Positions 157 through 19,821 of a stretch of DNA of 64,000 nucleotides are shown piece after piece. The notes below the pieces were generated by a model that worked only from the letters and a program-made list of their open reading frames with translations, made no database searches and had not been told where the DNA came from. How positions within the stretch are numbered: the first letter of the stretch is position 1; every line of letters starts with the position of its first letter. The position numbers and the translations under genes are program-made. Source of the stretch: Candidatus Poseidoniaceae archaeon (GTDB lineage: Archaea; Thermoplasmatota; Poseidoniia; Poseidoniales; Poseidoniaceae); contig JADHSC010000007.1 in NCBI GenBank assembly GCA_016777125.1, forward strand, positions 4,323-68,322, written 5' to 3'.

Positions 157-1176
157 CTACATATCCTGTTCCTTACTGGATGTGTACACCAGTATGGCAT
201 ACGCTACGTGAATCATCGGAATGAATCCGAGAACAATTCCATAGAGCATGCTTTCCGACATCTGAGCACCTGAACCCGATACCCAGAACATAATGACGAG
301 CATGACGATCAAGAACAGCGGCATTGCAACTGCAACAACAATGTATGATTCAGCCAGCATAGCAATCGATTCAAGGAATTGCTGTAGTCGTGTTCTGTTC
401 TCACGCATGTAGTGTTCCGCTCTGTTTAGGAAGAAGAGTTTCAGTTGACCACCAGCAGTTAGCGTACCAACCATACCTTGGAAGAATTCAGTTAACCACA
501 CAGAAGCAGCACGATCGACACTCATCTTCATCGAAGTAATCAGGTCATATCCAAGCAAGGTAACGTCGCGATACACCAGCGCAGCGTCATCAGCAACATC
601 GCCGTAGATGTCCTTATTCATCGCAAGAGATCTGAAAATCTTCGCAGGTGTTGCATTCGCAGCCGCCATTGCAGCAGTATACGAGGCTGCATATGGAAGG
701 TACTTCTCAATCATATCACCACGTCGCTTTGCTTCGCGTTCTGCTCCACCTTTGTTGAATTTCCAAGCCCCGATTGGAACCAAGACGAATCCTATGATGA
801 GAAGCAAAACCTTGAGTGCTGGTGGGAAGACTTTGGTATCGTAGTCTGGGCAACCGTTTCCTGGCTGTGATTCATCGATAAGCGCTGTGTTCCAGTATTC
901 CCATTCAAAACATACAGCTTGAGTTGCAGGGTCTTGCTGACTTTCCCACAGATCGATGACGCCTATTTCTGGAACGAAGAATAATCCAACCATACCGATT
1001 CCAATTGCAGAAACTACGATGGTTGTTACGAATACTGTGGCCAGATAAACTTCTGGCATCATCGGCATGGATGCTTTGACAAGATCCTTTGAAAGTTTCT
1101 TGTCGCCACGGGCACGTTTCTTGAACACACCGCCAAGGAGGCGATGACAGATACGTTGCCATGCGGTTAAATCCAT
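157..1176 (-). CDS. Type II secretion system F-domain (TadC/FlaJ/PilC-like) membrane platform protein
   Basis: T2SSF-like segment (IEKYLPYAASYTAAMAAANAT..IFRSLA..YG..A..ELFQGMVGTLTAGG) with several TM helices, directly downstream of a FlaI/TadA-type ATPase. Confidence 0.85.
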   Translation of the reverse strand: MDLTAWQRICHRLLGGVFKKRARGDKKLSKDLVKASMPMMPEVYLATVFVTTIVVSAIGIGMVGLFFVPEIGVIDLWESQQDPATQAVCFEWEYWNTALIDESQPGNGCPDYDTKVFPPALKVLLLIIGFVLVPIGAWKFNKGGAEREAKRRGDMIEKYLPYAASYTAAMAAANATPAKIFRSLAMNKDIYGDVADDAALVYRDVTLLGYDLITSMKMSVDRAASVWLTEFFQGMVGTLTAGGQLKLFFLNRAEHYMRENRTRLQQFLESIAMLAESYIVVAVAMPLFLIVMLVIMFWVSGSGAQMSESMLYGIVLGFIPMIHVAYAILVYTSSKEQDM

Positions 1177-1185
1177 AGAAACACC

Positions 1186-2712
1186 TCAGCGTAGACCGTC
1201 AACTCGTGCAAGAACTTCATTCGGACGAACGTAATATTCAGTAATGATTTGTGACACTTGGTCAGCCTTACGAATATCATTGAGAACAAGCCATTCCAAA
1301 ATTCGCTTACGTGTTCTCAATTCACGACGCATCTCGTCTTGTGAATAGTTGATTTTTACCATGATTTTCTCAAGAACATACGACTTACCACTGAAGATGA
1401 AATCGTCAGATGATACGTCCCAACGGAATACTTCGTTGGTAATGACTTCCATCGAGTTTGGATCGATACCAACAATCTCAACAATTTGTTTTGTTCTTCG
1501 AACACGTCGTCCATTGATACGAGTTTGAATCTGAATAACACAGCCTTCAAGTGCAGGCAATAAAACTCGAGGAATATCAATCGGTTTGTTCTCAAGTCGG
1601 TGGACGAGAGAAGGTACGGAGTCAGCGTGAACTGTTGAATACGCACAGTGACCGGTAGCCATTGCTTGGAACAGAACGTATGCTTCAGCACCACGAATCT
1701 CACCGACAATAATGTATTCTGGCCGTTCACGAAGAGCTGCTTTGAGCAACTCGAACTCACCGATCTCTCCCTCGCTTGATTCTCCACCAAACCCTTGCCG
1801 AGTAAGACCCGGGACCCAGTTTGGCTGAGGAATGTTTACTTCACGGGTGGATTCGATTGAAACGATTTTCATTTGCCATGGAATAAAGATACACATAGCA
1901 TTGAGTGTCGTGGTCTTACCGGAAGCGGTACCACCAACGAACAGCATTGGAACTTCATTTTGGAACGCAACCCAAAGATAAGCCACCATCAGAGATGACA
2001 TGGTTCGGAATGCAACAATATCTGCAGGAGAGAACGGATCGTCCTTGAATCGTCGAATACAGAAACAAGAACCGCGAGTTGAAACTTCACGACCTAATTT
2101 CATAACGATACGGGAACCATCCATCAGAGTTGCGTCAAGCAATGGGTCGGCAACGGAAATGTGCTTCCCACATCGTTGTGCGAGTTTAATGACATACGAT
2201 TCAAGTTCATCGTCAGTATCCCAAACAACGGTTGTTTCCACGGATTCGAATTTACGGTGATAAGCGAAAATTGGGACTCCGGTACCGTCGAGAGAAATAT
2301 CCTCAACGTTTGCATCGTTCATCAACACGTCCATCTGGCCGTATCCAATAAGGTCGCGGCGAATGTAATAGAACAATTTGGATTTGGATTTCTTGGTGAT
2401 TTTCATACCGTATGCTTTGATGACCTTGTCCATTGCAGTTCGAAGGTACGCTTCCGGGTTAGCGTCAATTTCTTCGATATTAGCAGTCAACGACCGGATG
2501 AAAATATCCATAATTTCTTCTCTTTGTTCTTGTTCTTTTTTTGTCATCGGTGGTTCGATGATTTGGTAAATGATGTTCAGCGTACGCTTGTCACGTACAA
2601 TTCTTGCAAAGGCATGCGGAGGCATGACTGGGTACTTGTCCAACTCATCATATTGAGCACGTTGTTGAGCTCTTTGACGACCTCGACCGCCTTCACCCTT
2701 CTTCCTTGCCAT
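1186..2712 (-). CDS. Type II/IV secretion system ATPase (FlaI/TadA/PilB-like)
   Basis: Walker A GGTASGKTT, Walker B IIVGEIRG, His box TGHCAYSTVHA, archaeal-type N-terminal domain (YYIRRDLIGYG..DVLMND..VEDIS). Confidence 0.92.
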   Translation of the reverse strand: MARKKGEGGRGRQRAQQRAQYDELDKYPVMPPHAFARIVRDKRTLNIIYQIIEPPMTKKEQEQREEIMDIFIRSLTANIEEIDANPEAYLRTAMDKVIKAYGMKITKKSKSKLFYYIRRDLIGYGQMDVLMNDANVEDISLDGTGVPIFAYHRKFESVETTVVWDTDDELESYVIKLAQRCGKHISVADPLLDATLMDGSRIVMKLGREVSTRGSCFCIRRFKDDPFSPADIVAFRTMSSLMVAYLWVAFQNEVPMLFVGGTASGKTTTLNAMCIFIPWQMKIVSIESTREVNIPQPNWVPGLTRQGFGGESSEGEIGEFELLKAALRERPEYIIVGEIRGAEAYVLFQAMATGHCAYSTVHADSVPSLVHRLENKPIDIPRVLLPALEGCVIQIQTRINGRRVRRTKQIVEIVGIDPNSMEVITNEVFRWDVSSDDFIFSGKSYVLEKIMVKINYSQDEMRRELRTRKRILEWLVLNDIRKADQVSQIITEYYVRPNEVLARVDGLR

Positions 2713-9546: not shown

Positions 9547-9981
9547 GTGAGGACACCTCAGATGTCTACCTCAGTGCTGATTGAAAAATTGAACCAAGCC
9601 CTTGGCTGGGAACTACGAGCGATCAACATGTATGCACACTATGCTGCATACATCAGAGGTATTCACAGACTCCAACTCGAACCTCATTTCTCTGCAGAAG
9701 CAAATGAATCGATGGTGCATTCAAACATCGTCCGTTCTGCTATTGTAAAACTTGGTGGCGTTGCTGTTACTGAGCGAAATCAAACCTCGATTCGCCATAC
9801 AACATCTTACTTGGAAATGCTTGCAGAGTCTTTGATTACAGAAACTAAAGCTGCTGAAGTCTATGGGGAATTGATTACAATGATCGAAGAAGATGGGGAT
9901 GCTGATTTGTACGATGCTATCGAACAAATCTATCTCGCTGAGATTCGAAGCGTTGAGGAACTTCGCAGACTTGCTGAATAA
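9547..9981 (+). CDS. Ferritin-like (bacterioferritin-type) four-helix protein
   Basis: LNQALGWEL..Y, EANESMVH, LGG turn, second-half E..KA and AEIRS. Likely ATG at 9562. Confidence 0.75.
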   Translation: MRTPQMSTSVLIEKLNQALGWELRAINMYAHYAAYIRGIHRLQLEPHFSAEANESMVHSNIVRSAIVKLGGVAVTERNQTSIRHTTSYLEMLAESLITETKAAEVYGELITMIEEDGDADLYDAIEQIYLAEIRSVEELRRLAE

Positions 9982-11136
9982 TCAAGCAAGGATGTTTAAC
10001 ATTCGCTCAAGAGCGAGAAGTGAACCCTCTTGAACATCTTGAGTCACACTGATTTGGTTGTGAATCTCTCCATCAACCAACCGTTCTAACAAGTCCATAA
10101 GATACGCTGGATGAATCATGTACATTGTTGAGCAAGGACAAATCTCTGGATCCAGACACTCGATGTGTTTGTCAGGATGTTGGTCTGCAAGTCTAGCAAC
10201 CATGTTAATCTCAGTTCCAATAGCCACCTTGGCTCCTTCTTCTAGATCTGCTACGTAGTTCAAAATGTATTGAGTTGACCCGTTGGCATCAGAAACTTCA
10301 ACGGTTTCTTTTGGGCATTCTGGATGGACAACTACAACACCATCAGGATGACGTTGGCGGAAATCTGCAATTTGAGATGGCTTGAATCGCTTATGGACTG
10401 AACAGAATCCATGCCATAGGATAATTCGAGCCATTGAAAGATCTGAACTTGCACCAATTCCTGGCGTCCATGTAGGCATTTGAGATTCTTCGATACCCAT
10501 TGAAATCCCGGTGTTTCGGCCAAGATGTTGGTCGGGGAAAAACAGAACCGCTCCCTTCGGACCTGCGCGTTCAAACGCCCATTCCAACACCCCAGTTGCG
10601 TTTGATGAAGTGCATACTACGCCACCATGGCGGCCAACAAAATCCTTCAAGTCTGCACTGCTGTTCATGTAGGTTACAGGAACGAGATATGATTCACCTT
10701 CTTCTGCAACGGATGCAGGATTGTCTCGGTGTATTGGGTCTTTCAAATCTGTAGAGGAAAGCATTTCATCCCACGCTTGTTCAACATCAACAAGTGTTGC
10801 CATGTCAGCCATAGAGCAACCAGCCCGTATGTTTGGAAGCATGACGACTTGATCAGGTGATGTCAGTATATCTGCAGACTCTGCCATGAAGTGGACGCCA
10901 CAGAAAATGATGTACTTTGCATCTGAATTTGCTGCTTTTTGACTTAGCATGAAGGAATCTCCAAGGAAATCAGCATGCATAACGATGCTGTCTCGTTGGT
11001 AATGATGTCCAAGAATTAACAAGTCCTCGCCCAACTCTTTCTTCAGTTCAGCAATCCGTTCAGCAATGGCTTGATCTTCAGGAGACATCGAGGTTGAAGA
11101 GAAGTCAACCGCGCACATAGCCAATGATATCGACAT
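9982..11136 (-). CDS. nadA: Quinolinate synthase A
   Basis: ILGHHYQR, IFCGVHFMAESA, AGCSMADM, VTYMNSSA, HGFCSVH, HPEC, GTEINM, CSTMY. Start at 11136 after SD GAGGTTGA. Confidence 0.92.
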   Translation of the reverse strand: MSISLAMCAVDFSSTSMSPEDQAIAERIAELKKELGEDLLILGHHYQRDSIVMHADFLGDSFMLSQKAANSDAKYIIFCGVHFMAESADILTSPDQVVMLPNIRAGCSMADMATLVDVEQAWDEMLSSTDLKDPIHRDNPASVAEEGESYLVPVTYMNSSADLKDFVGRHGGVVCTSSNATGVLEWAFERAGPKGAVLFFPDQHLGRNTGISMGIEESQMPTWTPGIGASSDLSMARIILWHGFCSVHKRFKPSQIADFRQRHPDGVVVVHPECPKETVEVSDANGSTQYILNYVADLEEGAKVAIGTEINMVARLADQHPDKHIECLDPEICPCSTMYMIHPAYLMDLLERLVDGEIHNQISVTQDVQEGSLLALERMLNILA

Positions 11137-11221
11137 GGTATTCAACCTCTCCACTGCGCTGACTGATTTGAACCCTATGCAAACGTTGAACTTATCATAA
11201 CGAGCGGTTTCGGACAGAATA

Positions 11222-11905
11222 ATGGTCTTCATTGACGAACAACGACTTCACCTCGGAGCAGAGGCAGAAGTATGGCGAGGTTCATGGATGGGCCAATCGG
11301 CAATTCGTAAACAACGACGAAATCGCTCTTGGAGACATCCTGATCTCGACGATCGACTCGGACGAAGAAGAATGATCGCTGAAGCAAGATTGTTGGTTCG
11401 ATTGTACCGTAATGGATTGAATGTACCCCTACTGCTTGATTGTGATATGTTTGAACAACAATTGGTCATGAGTCATGTCCAGGGTAAACCGTTGATCGAA
11501 ATCCTCAATGACCCCTCAATACCAGATGATTCGGTCATGAACATTTTGAAAAATACGGGTCAGAGTATTCGTATGCTTCACCGACAAGCTGTTATTCATG
11601 GCGATTTATCGACAAATAACATCATTGTCACACCTGAAAACGAAGCGGTACTCATTGATTTTGGACTCGCTCGAATTGAATATGAAACTGAATTATTCGG
11701 TATAGACCTTCACGTTCTTTTTGAAATTCTTGGTGCATCCCATCCGCATAGAAAGGATGCTATTGATGCTATTATCGAAGGCTATGCTGCATGTGAAGAC
11801 ATTCATGGTCCAGCAGAAAACACACCCGGTGGTCAGCCTGTCGGTATGCAAGATGTGCTCGATCGTTTCAACCTCATTCGGACTCGTGTCCGATATCATG
11901 GTTGA
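11222..11905 (+). CDS. bud32: KEOPS complex kinase Bud32 (stand-alone)
   Basis: GAEAEV, RNRSWRHPDLD..L...R...EAR, HGDLSTNN, LIDFGL, DLHVL. Confidence 0.88.
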   Translation: MVFIDEQRLHLGAEAEVWRGSWMGQSAIRKQRRNRSWRHPDLDDRLGRRRMIAEARLLVRLYRNGLNVPLLLDCDMFEQQLVMSHVQGKPLIEILNDPSIPDDSVMNILKNTGQSIRMLHRQAVIHGDLSTNNIIVTPENEAVLIDFGLARIEYETELFGIDLHVLFEILGASHPHRKDAIDAIIEGYAACEDIHGPAENTPGGQPVGMQDVLDRFNLIRTRVRYHG

Positions 11906-13970
11906 GGAGTTCTTTCTTGTCTTCATCTTGACGCTGAATGATGAAAATGAATGTCAATACAATAAGGACCATTACAGCAAATTGGAGAACAACACTGGAA
12001 TATTTAGCGAGTTCAGTACCACGAGTTAGCACCTTCACAACGAGTTCGCCATCATCTCCTTCTTCAAGATAAACGATACCTTCTTCCACCACAATTGGTG
12101 CATATTGATTGACGCTGTCCGAAGTCAACTGTTCACTAATCTTCGTTTCGAGATTGTATTGGTGTATTTCCCAATCAAGGTATTGGTCGAGAAGATTCGT
12201 CGGATCGAGATGGTCTCGTCCTTCCCAAACAAGATATTCATAGCCCATTGAAATATTGTTAATTGGGAATTTCGCATCGAATGGCATCGATTGTTGGACC
12301 GTTCCACGATCGTAGAGAACAAGCCGATATATTGCAGATACATTGACGATTGTAGCGATGTAGTTTTCATTGAACGCTATGTCAGTAATCGTAGCATTTT
12401 GATAATCAACAATCAATCCCCATTCTTCCAACTTCAGGTCTTGTTCCTCACTTGATGTTGCGTTCATGAAGATGTTTTGCGTACCAGAGATTCCAATCGT
12501 CCCTATGTGAACAGTTGAAGGCATTTCCTTCGAAATCATCACAAGTTCGTTCCCTTGAACTGAAATCATCTCGATGGTTTGACCCGCTGGAAGCATGGGC
12601 AGAACGATGTCTTGGCCTTTGGTATTAACAGCTTGAATTTGGTCATTTGAAGTGTAGATAATGACAGGTTCGCCTTGTAACTCGGTCAATTCCAATCCAT
12701 TCACTCCTGTTTGATTTATGACAAGTAGTGGTTGATTCGGTTTGTTTAGATCCACAAGCATAATCTCTGATTTATTCGCCATAACCAAGTAATTCTCTTT
12801 CAAGGCATACAACGAATCAACATCCATTGTTGGTTGGAGAACAACGATAGCATCATCAGAGGTTGATGAGAGATTGTGAACAAGAACAATGGCAACACCT
12901 GATTGATTGTCGAGTGTTGCAAGCCACCCATCAGAAGCGACTGCTCCTTGAGCAGATTGTACACCCTCTGCTGGTAAATCCTTATTCGTAAGATCCCATG
13001 TAATCACTCCAGCAGTAAGAATGAGAACAATCACAATCATTGCCCCTGTTTCCTTACTTGTTGGTTTTAACAACTTGAGAGTGAATTTTTTGCTACGGTT
13101 AAATACGAATTGGAGTGAATGAATTGGACGTGTTAGAATCGTTGCAAGACGGCTGTTGATGGTTCGTTCATCCAGAACATTCCAAACAGCCGTATTGGAT
13201 TTATCAACCATTTTCACGGTCAAAGCACCGATCATCATTCCGCCTATGATATCGGAGAACCAGTGGATACCAAGGTAAATGATAGCAAATGCAGTCACGA
13301 TGATGTAGATCAGCGTCATGTTTTGGAAGCGCTTCCAGCGACCATCATGATCGTGCTTCCTAAAGGTAAGCCAAATTGAGAATGGTACAGCGATATGGAG
13401 AGAAGGCATGCCGTTTGTAAATGCGTCAATCCTTCTGAACCATGTTTCAATCTCGGGATTTAGAGTGTATGCAATAGCATCCATATCCTCGATGTAAAAC
13501 CCAGTTACTCGAACGTTGAAGAACAGATAGAATGGAATGGCTAAAATGTATACCCATGCGATGCAAAGAGCAATTCTATCTGCCATCCATCGGTCATCGA
13601 AGTAAGCCACGTAGAAGATAGAAGAATACGTGACGAACATAAATCCAGAGATGTAAAAATGGGTCATGACGCTATCAAGCCAATCTGCTCGGAATGTTTC
13701 CTGAACCCATACGACAAGATCGCCCTCAATTGCGTAGATATAGGGTGTCATATCGATTCCAGTTCGAGCCATGAAGATTCGATCAATTTGGTCAAGGAAA
13801 TCCTTGGCATTGTAGATTGAGAGTGCGAGAAGAAGATGCAACCAGTAACGGCGAATGAAATCAACAAAACCTTTCAACGTCATGTTTGCCCATGGTGGCT
13901 TAAAGTAAGGCATTGCAAAGATACCAACTGCCAATGCGCTGATGAGCCAGGTAAGATAGACACCATCCAT
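11874..13970 (-). CDS. PAP2/Aur1 (IPC-synthase-like) phosphatase/phosphotransferase fused to a large extracellular beta-propeller-like domain with a C-terminal TM
   Basis: NGMPSLH and YLGIHWFSD motifs in a multi-TM N-terminal half; about 330-aa beta-rich domain with TolB-like LTSDSVNQYAP; terminal TM plus charged tail. Confidence 0.75.
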   Translation of the reverse strand: MDGVYLTWLISALAVGIFAMPYFKPPWANMTLKGFVDFIRRYWLHLLLALSIYNAKDFLDQIDRIFMARTGIDMTPYIYAIEGDLVVWVQETFRADWLDSVMTHFYISGFMFVTYSSIFYVAYFDDRWMADRIALCIAWVYILAIPFYLFFNVRVTGFYIEDMDAIAYTLNPEIETWFRRIDAFTNGMPSLHIAVPFSIWLTFRKHDHDGRWKRFQNMTLIYIIVTAFAIIYLGIHWFSDIIGGMMIGALTVKMVDKSNTAVWNVLDERTINSRLATILTRPIHSLQFVFNRSKKFTLKLLKPTSKETGAMIVIVLILTAGVITWDLTNKDLPAEGVQSAQGAVASDGWLATLDNQSGVAIVLVHNLSSTSDDAIVVLQPTMDVDSLYALKENYLVMANKSEIMLVDLNKPNQPLLVINQTGVNGLELTELQGEPVIIYTSNDQIQAVNTKGQDIVLPMLPAGQTIEMISVQGNELVMISKEMPSTVHIGTIGISGTQNIFMNATSSEEQDLKLEEWGLIVDYQNATITDIAFNENYIATIVNVSAIYRLVLYDRGTVQQSMPFDAKFPINNISMGYEYLVWEGRDHLDPTNLLDQYLDWEIHQYNLETKISEQLTSDSVNQYAPIVVEEGIVYLEEGDDGELVVKVLTRGTELAKYSSVVLQFAVMVLIVLTFIFIIQRQDEDKKELLNHDIGHESE

Positions 13971-14047
13971 GAGTAGACCTCCTTGTTCATGCGCTGCAGC
14001 CTTGCATTCAAGAAACCTGCACCTGCTTAAGGCTCAGAAAGGGCGAA

Positions 14048-14401
14048 TCACCATGCTCCGTGAACATAAGGGCGTCCACGATCGGGATCATTTCGATGGG
14101 CGAGGTCCCAGATTCTCTCAAATCGATAGATACCGCTCGAACATCCAGTAGCCCATTCAAACGAGAGTGCATAATTCCCTACTGTTTGGACCATTGGCTT
14201 TTGTTTAGGGTACGCTTCGACTGTACGGCGTAATTGCATACTCATTTCATCTTCGTTGCGAAGAGGAGAACATTTTGCACAAGGACAGGCATGTCGAAGG
14301 TCATCGTATGTTACAACAAAGCTTGTTCCATCCTCATAGGTGAGTTCCATATCAGTATCTCTGCGTTCAAGTTTACGCAATTCGAGAATTTCTTCAGCCA
14401 T
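14048..14401 (-). CDS. DUF971 (GBBH N-terminal-like) small metal-binding protein
   Basis: LRHACPCAKC, VGNYAL.F.W..GCSSGIY pattern. Confidence 0.82.
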   Translation of the reverse strand: MAEEILELRKLERRDTDMELTYEDGTSFVVTYDDLRHACPCAKCSPLRNEDEMSMQLRRTVEAYPKQKPMVQTVGNYALSFEWATGCSSGIYRFERIWDLAHRNDPDRGRPYVHGAW

Positions 14402-14410
14402 AGTATCACA

Positions 14411-15427
14411 TCAAATGATTTCCAAACTCGAACCTGAGCCCTGTGCTAATTGTGATTGTACCGAGGATACGACCTTGGCAAATGCAATTGCAGAAGCGCC
14501 ATCAGGTTCGCTAACGATACGATGAACACCATCGTCTCCACCTCGGACAAAGCCCGGATCAAACGGAAGGGCACCTAGGAAAGGTACGCCGAATTCTTCC
14601 GCAGTAGAACGTCCACCGCCTTCTTTGAAAATGTCCAATGTGATATTGAATTTACCTTCTTCATCACAAACTGCACTAAGAGTTCGTCCTGCTGGAGCAG
14701 CGATTTCGACGGTTGACCCTGGTGTTCCTTTGCCGTGAATTGTGTAGCCACTCATGTTCTCAACAACTCCCAAAACAGGAACTTTCAGAGAAGAAGCAAA
14801 TGAGATCGACTTTCTGCTGTCGAGTAATGCCACGTCTTGAGGTGTTGTAACGATGACCATTCCATCGATGTCTGGAAGTGATTGTGCTACAGTCAATGGC
14901 TCATCAGATGTGCCTGGAGGGAAATCAATGATCAGATAATCAAGTTCGCCCCATTCAACATCGCCAATGAATTGTTGAATTGCTCCAAGTTTAATTGGAC
15001 CTCTCCAAACAACGGGAGTGTCTTCGTCTTCGAGGAGGAACGCCATAGAGATGACCTTGACTCCAAGATGGCCTTGTGCGGGGTGAATGCGTCCACCTTC
15101 AACGTGAAGTTTTCGACCATCAAGGCCCATCATCTTCGGTACGTTCGGGCCGGTGATATCGATGTCCAAGATTCCTACTTTGTGGCCTTGTTGTGCAAGA
15201 GCAACTGCAAGTCCTGTTGATACTGTTGACTTTCCAACGCCACCTTTTCCAGAGAGCACCATAATTTTGTGCTTGATTTTCCTTCCGATTTCAGCCATTG
15301 ACATCTTACGCTTCATTTGAGCATAAGCCTGTTCCATTTGCTTTTGTTGAGCAGGATCAGCAGCACTTGGGGCTTCGTCTGCGGGTTCATTTCCAGGAGT
15401 ATGCATAGACACGGGGGAATCCGACAT
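14411..15427 (-). CDS. mrp: Mrp/ApbC/NBP35 family P-loop ATPase with an atypical C-terminal loop
   Basis: SGKGGVGKS, LDIDITGPNVP, VWRGP, DYLIIDFPPGTSD, VTTPQDVA..D, GVVENMS. Start MSDSPV at 15427. Confidence 0.9.
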   Translation of the reverse strand: MSDSPVSMHTPGNEPADEAPSAADPAQQKQMEQAYAQMKRKMSMAEIGRKIKHKIMVLSGKGGVGKSTVSTGLAVALAQQGHKVGILDIDITGPNVPKMMGLDGRKLHVEGGRIHPAQGHLGVKVISMAFLLEDEDTPVVWRGPIKLGAIQQFIGDVEWGELDYLIIDFPPGTSDEPLTVAQSLPDIDGMVIVTTPQDVALLDSRKSISFASSLKVPVLGVVENMSGYTIHGKGTPGSTVEIAAPAGRTLSAVCDEEGKFNITLDIFKEGGGRSTAEEFGVPFLGALPFDPGFVRGGDDGVHRIVSEPDGASAIAFAKVVSSVQSQLAQGSGSSLEII

Positions 15428-15453: not shown

Positions 15454-15852
15454 TCAAATCACGCTTTTGCTTTGCAGACCATAGCGAAGGAGGAAATGGG
15501 TGACGATTGCCACCAGTGGGAAAACCAGAATCATTGGATTCCATTGCATACCAGCGTACGCCCAACCCAATCCAACTGAAAGTGGAAGGGAAATGAGCGC
15601 CCCAATTTGGAAAGCATCTCTACGAATGGATTGATCCGAATGGATGAGAAAGAAGAGAAACGTCCCACCAAGAAAAAAAGTCTGGATTGTGATCATAGTC
15701 GCTATACTACGAAAGAGAACATCTGCATCGTTGGCCGCAGCAAGGATATGGGCGATGAAAAGAGTTGCATAAAGACCAGCAGAGAAAAGAACCGCTCGGC
15801 GCACTTCTGGCTGCATAGTCCACACTACAAAGCCGAAGTTCAAGAGACTCAC
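15454..15852 (-). CDS. Hypothetical 4-TM membrane protein
   Basis: 132-aa hydrophobic ORF, co-oriented with and 26 nt upstream of mrp. Confidence 0.65.
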   Translation of the reverse strand: MSLLNFGFVVWTMQPEVRRAVLFSAGLYATLFIAHILAAANDADVLFRSIATMITIQTFFLGGTFLFFLIHSDQSIRRDAFQIGALISLPLSVGLGWAYAGMQWNPMILVFPLVAIVTHFLLRYGLQSKSVI

Positions 15853-16770: not shown

Positions 16771-19700
16771 TTATTGGAACCCGAATCTGTCCTGACCTTT
16801 CTCTGGAGGATTGCGTTGCCGAATCATCACAAACGCAGCCGCACCAAGTGCCACTATAGCCACAATTATTGCAATAAATGTAATCGATAACCCATCTCCA
16901 TCACCGAGCAGGTTATCATCATCAGCCTCTGAAACAATCACATCAAAGGATGTTGGCGGGGTAGCCTCACCGTATGAATCAGAAGCCTGTATCTTGATTT
17001 CGTGGAAACTGAGTGGAGTGGATGATCTTACAGAAGCTGCTGCTGTGTAAATTCCATCACCTGCAACACGGTCAAGACCTTGGCCATTATCGTACAACGT
17101 GACCCATTTTTGAGTTTGACTGATGGGTTTTAGAATCCCTAAATCTGCTCGAACAAGAAGGATTCCATCGGCATCTTCTACATTGATTTCGATAGCCTGC
17201 TCTGTGTTTAGATCCTCTCTGATGAGGGCTTCAGTTGTGGCGAGTGAAATCGTAGGCGGTGTATTTTCAACCGTAACGGCCAAGTCTAAATCCGTTGAAC
17301 TCGGTTGGAAATGATGCTCTGAGGCCTGCGTTTTACTCACGAGTATTGTCGCCCCAAGTTCATCCGTAAGTCGAACACTGATGGAACGCACGCCTGGAGC
17401 CATCCCGTAAGGGAGAATCAATTCACACATCCAAAGATCCATCTTCTGACAAGGGATTTCCTCTCCACCGTAAACACGTAAATCAACACCGACAGATGCC
17501 ACACCGTGGTAATCAAGTGCCTCGATGGTCATCAATGTCGCTCCACCGCGAATGACTTCGTTTGGTGAAATTGTCGCACTGAGAATTCGAGGTGCTTGAT
17601 TTTCCACAGTAATGGTGGTCGAAAGTGAATCGCTTTCGAACCATTCATCCGTAGCTTGGGCAGTGATGTTTATTTCACCCACCTGCAAACCATTGACCGA
17701 AACCATCGTTGTCCATTTGTTATCTCCAATTGTTTGGTCCCCGTTAAGACCTCGATCATTCATGTTGACGATACCAAGCCCGAGTGATGAAAGGTCGACT
17801 GTTACGCTGGCAACGTTCCAATCATCATCATCGATTGTAGCAACAAGATGTGCTGGCGAGCCACCTTCTCCAAAGACCAATCCTTCTGAGAGCGAAAGAT
17901 CGGTCACAATTGGAGCTGAATTATCATCAGCGGAAACGATACTTGGTGAAAGGATGACATCCACTGCTTGAGATTCATTGAGGAAAGCGATTTCGTCATC
18001 CTCACCAAAGGCGATTTCAAAGGAACGCGAAGTGCTTGCAAGAAGTCCTGAAAGCGGACCCTGATGGACGATTGAACCAGAAGCAGTACCCGATACACCA
18101 TCGCTGTAAACACCAGTCCATTGAACGACACTGAGGTTCTTTGCATCTCTCGGCTCAACCGCTTCATTGCCTGCAGTGATTGTTAGAACGATTCCATCTT
18201 GTTCGAGCAAGCGAACCACATCGCCCGTATGAATAGGAATCGGAGCTAGGCCCGCTTCTCGTCCAACAGAAATATTGCCTAAGGCATTCTCTGCTTCTGG
18301 AGGAGTTGCATCTGTTTCGATTGGACTTCGCTCAGGACGTTCATCTCCACTTGATGGGTCGGGGCCAGTCTCAGTCCAAACAAGACGAACAGTTCGGTTT
18401 TCCCAATCCGAATGAGTTGCTTGATAGATGTAGGAATCATTGTAATAAGCACCTGCTCCAGAACCACCAAAGAAGTTACTTCCACCAATGCCTGTGACGT
18501 TAAACCAAACTTCATTGTGAATGACGTTAACATCGTGAAGAACCATTGTTTGGTTCATCTGTGTGCCTGTTTGTTCAATCGATTGAACCACTCCAAATGT
18601 TCCTTGAACATCTCCTGAAAGTGTTCCATCAACATGCAAGTCGTCGATGTAGGTGATACCATCAACGACCTTTGTATTGAAATTGTAAACCGAACCATTT
18701 ACGATCATCGTTGCATTTTCATCCTCATCCTCAAATCCAAAGGTTCCATCTCCTTGAAGATGCTCAAGATGTTCAACTCGCACGCCGTTTTCCCATCGCT
18801 CGAGTGTCTCGAACTGATTGAGGTCAAGATCCAATCGAGTTCCTTCATCTACGAGAACAAAGTTTGCTGTTGCTTCGATTTGAGTGTGCTGTAACACACG
18901 TACACCATCGATATCGTTTGTTTCAAGCAATAAGAGACTGATATCTCCATCGACATCCAAACTCCCATCTTCACCTTCGCCTTCAACCATCAAAGACCCA
19001 AAGGCTTCGAGTCGAAGTCGTTCAGACACAATGTTATCGAGATTTGAGCGATTGAGGAGAGCATCAACCACCGTTGCATTAATCGTGGAAATTACGCCAT
19101 CATCGTTGGTTTGGAGGAGAATACCACCGCTGCCGCGTGCTTCGATAACTTGAGAGGTTAACGCCCCTGATACCACTGTTTCATTTTTCCAAAAGGATTC
19201 GAAATTCAAATCTAATACCGTTGTCGAATTATCGGTTATTTCGGTTGTTTGAAGGGTCCCGTTTCCAAGTTCATAGGACTGAAGTACCTCATTGATTCGT
19301 TGTTGCCAACCATTGCCTTCAAACAATAAAACGAATGTTTGGTTTCCTTCTTCGGTTTCATAATTTTGTTCCAAGGACCAAGATGAAGTTGTTGTCACTT
19401 CGTGATCTGCCATCGGTTGATTCCATGAACCGACAACAAAGGTTCGTTGTTCGTTCACAGAAGTCGAAAGAGCAACACCATTGTGACCATTGATGGTCAC
19501 TGAAACAGTGATCGAATCGTTCCACGCTACAACTGAATCGAGGACAATTCGAGCGGTTAATGTCGAGGTTTGATCGAGAAATGTCGTTTGAACTGATGGT
19601 GCTAAATCGTTGCCTGCGCGTAGATGAGATACGCTTACATCGTAATCATGCGACGAAGAATCTCCAAATGTCAAAACATATGCATGCTCATTGGAAAGAG

Positions 19701-19821
19701 AAGATGTGCTTGTCCAATCAGTGGTTATTGATACACTGGGTGTATCTTCCGCTGATGCGAGATATGTAAGCGGAGTAAGGAGGAGAAGAAGAGTGATGGC
19801 CGATGCACGAATCAATCCCAT
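16771..19821 (-). CDS. Large secreted, C-terminally anchored cell-surface protein (beta-repeat region, Ig-like and choice-of-anchor-X-like domains)
   Basis: Signal peptide (ITLLLLLTPLTYLASA); two motifs of the type LYDNG...D..AGDGIYTA / MNDRG..GD...GDNKWT; C-terminal TM plus basic tail. Confidence 0.8.
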   Translation of the reverse strand: MGLIRASAITLLLLLTPLTYLASAEDTPSVSITTDWTSTSSLSNEHAYVLTFGDSSSHDYDVSVSHLRAGNDLAPSVQTTFLDQTSTLTARIVLDSVVAWNDSITVSVTINGHNGVALSTSVNEQRTFVVGSWNQPMADHEVTTTSSWSLEQNYETEEGNQTFVLLFEGNGWQQRINEVLQSYELGNGTLQTTEITDNSTTVLDLNFESFWKNETVVSGALTSQVIEARGSGGILLQTNDDGVISTINATVVDALLNRSNLDNIVSERLRLEAFGSLMVEGEGEDGSLDVDGDISLLLLETNDIDGVRVLQHTQIEATANFVLVDEGTRLDLDLNQFETLERWENGVRVEHLEHLQGDGTFGFEDEDENATMIVNGSVYNFNTKVVDGITYIDDLHVDGTLSGDVQGTFGVVQSIEQTGTQMNQTMVLHDVNVIHNEVWFNVTGIGGSNFFGGSGAGAYYNDSYIYQATHSDWENRTVRLVWTETGPDPSSGDERPERSPIETDATPPEAENALGNISVGREAGLAPIPIHTGDVVRLLEQDGIVLTITAGNEAVEPRDAKNLSVVQWTGVYSDGVSGTASGSIVHQGPLSGLLASTSRSFEIAFGEDDEIAFLNESQAVDVILSPSIVSADDNSAPIVTDLSLSEGLVFGEGGSPAHLVATIDDDDWNVASVTVDLSSLGLGIVNMNDRGLNGDQTIGDNKWTTMVSVNGLQVGEINITAQATDEWFESDSLSTTITVENQAPRILSATISPNEVIRGGATLMTIEALDYHGVASVGVDLRVYGGEEIPCQKMDLWMCELILPYGMAPGVRSISVRLTDELGATILVSKTQASEHHFQPSSTDLDLAVTVENTPPTISLATTEALIREDLNTEQAIEINVEDADGILLVRADLGILKPISQTQKWVTLYDNGQGLDRVAGDGIYTAAASVRSSTPLSFHEIKIQASDSYGEATPPTSFDVIVSEADDDNLLGDGDGLSITFIAIIVAIVALGAAAFVMIRQRNPPEKGQDRFGFQ

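Follow-up and report, generated by a model that had tools for sequence, protein, structure and literature searches.

What supplies the ligands when an ATPase of the Mrp/NBP35 class has no CxxC motif, and can a Cys-rich neighbour supply them instead? The question is raised by two genes coded on the minus strand of a 64,000-nucleotide (nt) stretch of contig JADHSC010000007.1 (assembly GCA_016777125.1, Candidatus Poseidoniaceae archaeon), called the window below. One gene codes for a Mrp-class ATPase and the next one for a small DUF971 protein with four cysteines.

14411..15427, minus strand: gene of the Mrp/NBP35-class P-loop ATPase (P0001) without CxxC, 338 amino acids (aa) plus stop; assigned by PF10609, PDB, and Foldseek.
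14402..14410, minus strand: intergenic spacer from the Mrp stop to the DUF971 start, exactly 9 nt as read from the sequence.
14048..14401, minus strand: gene of the DUF971 / GBBH-like_N protein (P0002), Cys4 variant, 117 aa; assigned by PF06155 and Foldseek.

The answer that we put first, and hold tentatively, is that the pair represents an HCF101-like iron-sulphur (Fe-S) maturation module of Poseidoniales, split into two genes, in which thiolate ligands come in trans from the DUF971 protein. The physical complex of the two proteins, the position and role of the insert described below, the nature of the bound metal, and an involvement of Fe-S clusters at all are what we infer from the evidence that follows.

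The ATPase matched PF10609 (NUBPL/ParA iron-transfer NTPase) with an E-value of 2.6e-89 and 299 bits (cut-off 27.1), and the match comes in two stretches with a break at residue 229/231. Its relatives in PDB are AF2382 (2PH1), Cfd1 (6G2G), AF_226 (3KB1), and ApbC (8ZKC), with E-values of 1e-51 to 1e-54 overall and 1e-53 to 1e-54 for the first three. The AlphaFold2 (AF2) model computed on the family alignment has a mean predicted local distance difference test (pLDDT) score of 86.9, and with this model Foldseek found canonical carriers at E-values of 1e-21 to 1e-24, with 1.7e-24 for ApbC 8ZKC and 5.5e-22 for Cfd1. The NCBIfam equivalogs were not reached, with 206 bits vs 348 for ApbC (NF008669) and 319 vs 450 for MrpORP (NF041136). 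The N-terminus is a disordered tail followed by a single helix at residues 25-49 in the model, and no match to DUF59 / FeS_assembly_P (PF01883) was found in the Pfam scan. The start codon is ATG at 15427, in agreement with the orthologue starts MSDSP/MADSP; a longer open reading frame (ORF), TTG-started and reaching 15565, overlaps a 132-aa membrane ORF and is probably not used.

Proteins of the Mrp/NBP35 class carry two signature motifs, a Walker A of the deviant form GKGGhGK[ST] with the signature lysine and a CxxC motif bridging a [4Fe-4S] cluster (PMC6345978). The first of them is intact.

15227..15253, minus strand: deviant Walker A motif SGKGGVGKS, residues 59-67, with signature Lys61; alignment A3 of 41 sequences.

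Residues S59, K61, G62, G63, V64, G65, and K66 are invariant in this alignment, as are the switch Asp residues and the motif DxPPGT(S/G)DE. Mean pairwise identity among 68 orthologues is 94.6% in the ATPase core, 85% in the C-terminal part, and 60.6% in the insert; the core is therefore under strong purifying selection.

The second signature is missing. After ENMS (residues 223-226) the protein continues with GYTIHGKGTPGSTVEIAAPAGRTLSAVCDEEGKFNITLDIF (residues 227-267, nt 14627-14749), where the relatives in alignment A3 have C-P-x-C-G-x-x-x-x between ENMSG[FY]x and [DI]IF. About 34-36 residues replace 7-9 residues of the relatives' CxxC loop, which is a net gain of about 27. Alignments with PDB entries begin at residue 49 and halt at 228-229, and those with 2PH1, 6G2G, and 3KB1 pick up again at 264-266; on the relatives' side the gap runs from 195 to 205 in 2PH1 and from 198 to 206 in Cfd1 6G2G. 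The insert is located at the exact site of the CxxC loop in 2PH1, 3KB1, and Cfd1 6G2G.

14633..14746, minus strand: beta-rich insert, residues 228-265, a four-stranded half-Ig module; alignment A3, AF2 model, and Big_6 match.

The four strands in the AF2 model (residues 228-233, 239-243, 249-253, and 259-264) have pLDDT of 84-95. The Big_6 profile (PF17936) matched the insert with an E-value of 4.2e-6 and 27.3 bits, just under the 27.6 needed, with positions 12-55 of the 83 in the profile covered; a precomputed PF17936 match is present in 41 of 120 orthologue clusters. A biofilm surface protein (PDB 7DM0) matched as well, with an E-value of 8.6e-5, and so did an adhesin repeat model. The label Ig-like is fair, yet it applies to about half a domain, and the resemblance is statistically real but borderline. 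The first-pass annotation of this DNA, made from the sequence alone, had described a Mrp protein without CxxC and with an Ig-like stretch after ENMS; its sequence and coordinates were correct, and Big_6 and the AF2 strands agree with it, though for half a domain and with a score under the cut-off.

Among the 68 orthologues no other folded part of Mrp evolves as fast as the insert, in which Gly, Pro, and residues of the core (G232, P236, P245, G247, G258, F260, T263, and D265) make up the conserved positions. Such a pattern is suggestive of a structural role and not of ligand binding or catalysis. An origin from a neighbouring surface-protein gene was rejected, as the insert matched nothing but itself when it was compared with the window by tblastn. 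The only Cys of the window protein, recognized as such from the beginning, lies in this insert.

14666..14668, minus strand: codon of the sole cysteine C254, within the insert; clade-specific.

Its conservation was followed in a scan with one genome per GTDB species, in which 80 loci were kept and 70 had enough upstream DNA to be testable. The Mrp protein has no Cys in 43 of the 70 species loci and one Cys in 26, and the remaining locus is frameshifted. All but one of the 26 one-Cys loci (25/26) belong to a single clade, the window's own, and the C254 column among the 68 orthologues has Ala in 27, Cys in 26, and Thr in 11. The first-pass annotation had allowed that the Cys in the insert could be sufficient for cluster binding without DUF971. 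This idea is not tenable: C254 is confined to one clade and is ruled out as a cluster ligand because it is missing from 43/70 species. The ATPase is a strongly constrained engine with intact nucleotide-binding motifs, and it is unable to supply thiolates. Because most of the orthologous ATPases contain no Cys, any thiolate ligands have to be provided in trans, and the Cys4 site of DUF971 is their most probable source.

The DUF971 protein begins 9 nt downstream of the Mrp stop and carries CPCAKC and GCSSGIY, just as had been annotated at first. It matched PF06155 with an E-value of 2.2e-16 and 60.8 bits (cut-off 22.8). Its AF2 model has pLDDT of 79.6, and Foldseek placed 2L6N, 2L6P, and 3LUU first among the related structures, followed by gamma-butyrobetaine hydroxylase (BBOX1) with its N-terminal domain; the profile search did not reach BBOX1, and this relation was seen through the fold search only.

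14270..14287, minus strand: CPCAKC motif, residues 39-44, with C39, C41, and C44; alignment A2.
14141..14143, minus strand: codon of Cys87 (GCSSGIY), at the position of the conserved His of the family; alignment A2.

C39, C41, C44, and C87 are all invariant in the 21 sequences of alignment A2, with identity down to 48%. CxCxxC is the normal motif of the DUF971 family (PMC7980591). At the position of C87, His and not Cys is present in 3LUU, 2L6N, 2L6P, the Mrp-fused domains of P0359 and P0385, and the stand-alone protein P0527. Judging from these sequences, the change from His to Cys is the only feature of the Cys set that is special to the DUF971 lineage of Poseidoniales, CxCxxC being ordinary. 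Outside the Cys set, the lineage has two extras of its own, a helix that follows CxCxxC and, at the C-terminus, the tail DPDxGxPYVHGAW, which is conserved but modelled with low confidence.

The pair is conserved across the order. Matches of Mrp and DUF971 that bear organism names are from Candidatus Poseidoniales, Poseidoniaceae, or Poseidonia (Marine Group II, MGII). The best 120 protein clusters are 78-90% identical to the window Mrp, and all 15 that were aligned contain the insert. The Cys4-type DUF971 is encoded in 209 GTDB species genomes, and the insert-type Mrp lies directly upstream of it in 70 of 70 testable loci, with a spacer of 9 nt in 52 loci and 10 nt in 11 (9-10 nt in 63). Four distant Poseidoniales loci (L001-L004) retain the pair, with Mrp 74% and DUF971 about 48-57% identical. 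An insert that is strain-specific or an assembly artefact, the other way in which the early annotation could have failed, is ruled out, as it is present in all Poseidoniales orthologues examined, including those of the 70 species loci.

In one metagenome-assembled genome (MAG) alone (L061, JAYQOB010000008.1), the Mrp frame breaks within the insert (…GNFSGRLISSKKAAARRR); this is probably no real pseudogene but a frameshift error, the assembly being a polished one from long reads. The Poseidoniales pair turned up also on contigs assigned to three MAGs whose titles are Salipiger bermudensis, Rhodobiaceae bacterium, and Verrucomicrobiales bacterium (L024, L026, and L071), with 68-88% DUF971 identity; for the last one the evidence is a tblastn match plus Mrp. 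Binning contamination is probably the reason. With the nearest CxxC-bearing relative, P0257, as a query, matches were obtained from Thermoplasmata, Methanomassiliicoccales, and Halobacteriota, and no Poseidoniales were among the few named of the top 120. No publication on a Cys-free, insert-type Mrp variant was found in the literature.

Mrp and DUF971 appear to be co-transcribed. Contigs from four marine metatranscriptome runs of three studies (X1, X5, X6, and X7) cross the spacer between the genes, and one of them covers both genes exactly.

13984..15427, minus strand: metatranscriptome contig covering both genes exactly; run X6, cDNA RNA-Seq, 1444 nt.

This contig extends from the A of the Mrp ATG to a position 64 nt beyond the stop of DUF971. 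A bicistronic archaeal mRNA without a leader would look like this, and the contig is a candidate for one. Such contigs are strandless, can derive from DNA, and can have ends made by the assembly.

Loss of CxxC was followed in the wider family. HMMER, run exhaustively against 1.84 billion representatives, returned 19,762 matches. The best 150 of these, together with a few additions, gave 116 proteins whose loops could be assessed: CxxC is present in 82, the loop is short and Cys-less in 19, and it is long in 15. A similar beta-insert, with the pattern …G.[TV][IL].G…V.[LI]…D..G.F…[LIV]D[LIV]F..GG, was found in four more groups, represented by P0246, by P0251, and by the bacterial DUF59-Mrp proteins P0313/P0398/P0401 and P0321/P0402. 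A single origin of the beta-insert proteins was not borne out: the FastTree phylogeny of the core, with the loop masked, places them in four spots, although its deep nodes are weak, and the clade of Poseidoniales with P0246 (Poseidoniia, support 1.0) is the only one well supported. Horizontal transfer, loss, or convergence may be the source of the scattered inserts. P0246 (L005/L006 5001-6026) represents a sister lineage that is 62% identical and Cys-free, with a longer insert of about 45 aa, and it keeps the synteny Alba-Mrp...NadA-Bud32.

Two bacterial or bacterial-like arrangements favour the split module. The CxxC-less, insert-type DUF59-Mrp P0398 has a stop (4621) that overlaps the start of a 72-aa DUF6487 gene (L007 4621-4839), whose product is a 4-Cys zinc ribbon, MQCPKCQ...YRCIECG; for P0401, a DUF6487 homologue is coded 26 nt downstream of Mrp (L090 1282-1488). 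P0398 and the zinc-ribbon gene may parallel the Poseidoniales pair, as another ATPase that has a small partner with Cys4. On the bacterial-like contig L091 (1545-2730), a canonical DUF971 of the CxCxxC/His type begins 1 nt beyond the stop of P0303, a Mrp without Cys and with a short loop (ENMSYLMHGNERIDIF); for P0306 (L094), the nearest relative that has CxxC, the downstream gene is unrelated and not a DUF971. P0303 with its DUF971 compared with P0306, and the overlap of P0398 with the zinc ribbon, may be read as independent parallels to the Poseidoniales pair. The ferredoxin gene that precedes P0321 belongs to the same picture: small Cys-bearing or Fe-S-related partners recur beside CxxC-less Mrps, in spite of there being no simple DUF971 rule.

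In canonical Mrp proteins, the CxxC loops of both protomers face each other across the two-fold axis of the dimer and bridge the [4Fe-4S] cluster (PMC6345978). Because the replaced loops face each other there, the two inserts should meet at the axis in the closed dimer. If the pair is a split module, the ATPase dimer would close on ATP binding, and the two inserts would meet at the two-fold axis and form a platform. Two DUF971 subunits would be recruited to it, with a cluster or iron held on or between them, and ATP hydrolysis would open the dimer and release the cargo to apo-proteins.

A bolder version of this scheme is unlikely, though worth stating: two half-Ig inserts and two DUF971 subunits might form a shielded chamber with a transferable cluster that is ligated wholly by DUF971 cysteines, all-thiolate through the change from His to Cys. 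If true, this would be the first Mrp-class carrier to keep its cluster on another subunit. Archaea that are very abundant in the surface ocean could in this way be adapted to water that is oxic, bright, and poor in iron, and DUF971 would gain a biochemical role in HCF101-type proteins generally.

The split carrier of the early annotation is partly supported: an ATPase that cannot give Cys ligands, a partner gene adjacent in every testable locus, RNA contigs spanning both genes, and four invariant cysteines fit it. Published work also ties the pair to Fe-S metabolism, through the domain arrangement of HCF101, its binding and transfer of [4Fe-4S], and the cofitness of DUF971 described below. The idea that DUF971 compensates for the lost CxxC fared worse, and several observations weigh against it and against the split module. 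CxCxxC with His occurs also in DUF971 domains fused to CxxC-keeping Mrps (P0359 and P0385); because of this, the motif is not evidently compensatory. The Shewanella DUF971 2L6N is without any Cys motif. We take the BBOX1 site homologous to the Cys site of DUF971 to be a mononuclear Zn site with three Cys and one His, and ligands as tightly spaced as those of CxCxxC would suit one metal ion more readily than a cubane cluster. Loss of CxxC is common in the family (34/116 representatives). The Mrp gene of P0246 is followed by a peptidyl-prolyl isomerase gene and has no adjacent DUF971; nor have the Cys-free P0314, with Fur, ferritin, and DUF59 genes as neighbours, and P0324, with a NuoB-like neighbour gene. 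The survey that the first-pass annotation proposed, of whether CxxC-less Mrps always occur with a 4-Cys DUF971, gave a negative answer as far as adjacent genes go: the rule is broken by these three and by P0321, which has no DUF971 neighbour either, and in the fusions P0359 and P0385 DUF971 occurs with CxxC retained. No Suf or DUF59 genes are present within 1-34 kb of the window, and no conserved surface is visible on the insert in the conservation pattern of the 68 orthologues.

Much of this is equally what favours a cluster-free assembly or targeting factor, in which Zn would have a purely structural role at the Cys4 site of DUF971, and the pair would serve Fe-S maturation or repair by docking apo-targets or other carriers, as an adaptor or chaperone powered by ATP. 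The DUF971 fold matches 3LUU and the BBOX1 N-terminal domain, CxCxxC occurs regardless of the CxxC status of Mrp, a Cys-free DUF971 exists, Cys-free Mrps without adjacent DUF971 (P0246, P0314, and P0324) suggest that the class can work without ligands of its own, and CxxC is lost in the same 34 of 116 representatives. Against it, the order-wide change from His to Cys and the strict invariance of Cys4 would then mean stability only, and the closest precedent, HCF101, binds a cluster (PMC2805927). We regard this explanation, the main rival of the split module, as doubtful, but as one to be taken seriously.

A metallochaperone like HypB/HypA is improbable. Here ATP-dependent dimerisation would alter the metal affinity of the Cys4 partner, which would deliver an ion of Fe, Zn, Ni, or Co. 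Thermococcus HypB of the ATPase type is structurally close (phmmer E-value 1.3e-30, Foldseek template modelling (TM) score 0.87-0.90 on the target), and presumably it, too, is without CxxC and has HypA, with a Zn(Cys)4 site, as the protein it acts on; a mononuclear metal would also suit the way the four Cys of DUF971 are spaced. But the sequence is far closer to ApbC, Cfd1, and the AF Mrps, at the E-values of 1e-51 to 1e-54 given above, than to HypB, DUF971 is unrelated to HypA, and no hydrogenase, urease, other Ni-enzyme, or hyp/hyd genes were found within 1-34 kb of the window. In published genetics DUF971 is linked to Fe-S factors: cofitness with Mrp, BolA, and YggX was reported, that with Mrp for Shewanella DUF971 (10.1101/072470).

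A metal-free positioning or membrane switch like MinD/ParA, with the insert as an interaction surface and DUF971 as an adaptor, is very improbable, since the loss of all Cys, the Ig-like modules as typical interaction domains, and the membrane-protein genes on both sides (PAP2 at 11874-13970 and the 132-aa ORF at 15454-15852) stand against only 79 bits for the archaeal MinD model compared with 319 for MrpORP and 206 for ApbC, no evident amphipathic C-terminal membrane helix, flanking genes that change between lineages, and a literature link of DUF971 to Mrp that concerns Fe-S clusters.

Both proteins of the proposed split module end in conserved tails.

14414..14425, minus strand: C-terminal tail LEII of Mrp, after a variable, low-confidence linker; L335, E336, and I337 are invariant (alignment A1).
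14051..14071, minus strand: C-terminal tail PYVHGAW of DUF971; Y112, V113, H114, G115, A116, and W117 are at least 90% conserved.

The Mrp tail has the form LEI[IV] across orthologues, with pLDDT below 50 at residues 333-338. Residues 113-117 of DUF971 have pLDDT below 50 too, and the PYVHGAW tail is absent from 3LUU, P0359, and P0385.

The genes flanking the pair vary from lineage to lineage. Neighbours in the window are Ham1, CrcB, a ferritin-like gene, NadA, a Bud32/RIO-type kinase, and the PAP2 membrane protein, and further the 132-aa membrane ORF, a low-molecular-weight phosphatase, Alba, a 1016-aa surface protein, and polyamine/hypusine genes. The 132-aa ORF (minus strand) is directly upstream of the Mrp gene, codes for a multi-pass membrane protein, and has no Pfam match; loci L002 and L004 have a 130-aa ORF in the matching position. 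The 1016-aa protein (16771-19821, minus strand) is a secreted or anchored surface protein, also with no Pfam match, and unannotated proteins of similar size are coded at the equivalent position in L001-L004. A Dps-type ferritin-like gene adjoins NadA, a [4Fe-4S] enzyme, at 9547-11232, about 3 kb from the gene pair. NadA is near Mrp throughout the class, including the distant Poseidoniales and the P0246 lineage, on a strand that varies; this proximity is conserved synteny, not an operon. At the left window end (157-2712, minus strand), T2SSF- and T2SSE-type genes code for the platform and the ATPase of an archaeal type IV pilus or archaellum. No Mrp paralogue was found when the whole Mrp protein was compared with the 64-kb window by tblastn. 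If Poseidoniales have no other Mrp, their delivery of [4Fe-4S] clusters departs from the textbook model.

These findings show that Mrp proteins can dispense with CxxC, the usual signature of the family, throughout an order of abundant marine archaea, and that a recurrent half-Ig beta-insert can take over the CxxC site, as it does in at least four Mrp lineages. The pair is of value mainly because it offers a clean natural test case for the function of DUF971, which is still called elusive (PMC7980591, PMC11838916); in the HCF101-type factors of plastids, apicomplexans, and many bacteria, DUF971 is the third module and the one without an explanation. As the ATPase is stripped of Cys, a metal or cluster in the complex would have to be on DUF971, and with the modules separated two small soluble proteins should suffice to test its role.

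Among known systems, the Thermococcus pair of Mrp/MinD-type HypB and HypA (3VX3, 5AUN) is similar in outline, with a CxxC-less ATPase of the same superfamily and a small partner with a Cys4 site, but the partner has another fold, hydrogenase context is missing, and sequence similarity is much lower than to ApbC/Cfd1. Stand-alone bacterial DUF971 proteins (3LUU, and 2L6N and 2L6P from Shewanella/Pseudomonas) share the fold and the family, and adjacent Mrp and DUF971 genes are present also on L091; the Poseidoniales protein differs in having Cys for His, the extra helix after CxCxxC, and the PYVHGAW tail. Canonical Mrp, ApbC, Nbp35, Cfd1, and Ind1 have the same fold and ATPase motifs, but their CxxC is replaced in Poseidoniales by a half-Ig beta-module of 36 residues, and the cut-offs of the NCBIfam equivalogs are missed. 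HCF101, with the arrangement DUF59-ATPase-DUF971 and no C-terminal cluster site, binds and transfers [4Fe-4S] (PMC2805927; PMC5890173; PMC7980591), and it is likewise a Mrp-class ATPase without the C-terminal CxxC site that is tied to DUF971. Its DUF971 is fused C-terminally, whereas that of Poseidoniales is coded by a separate ORF 9 nt downstream, and the DUF59 domain of HCF101 has no equivalent in the Poseidoniales Mrp, which alone has the beta-insert. The cluster cysteines of HCF101 are in its own DUF59 and ATPase parts (C128, C347, and C419), where the Poseidoniales ATPase has none, and plant DUF971 is without CxCxxC, whereas the DUF971 of Poseidoniales has four invariant cysteines.

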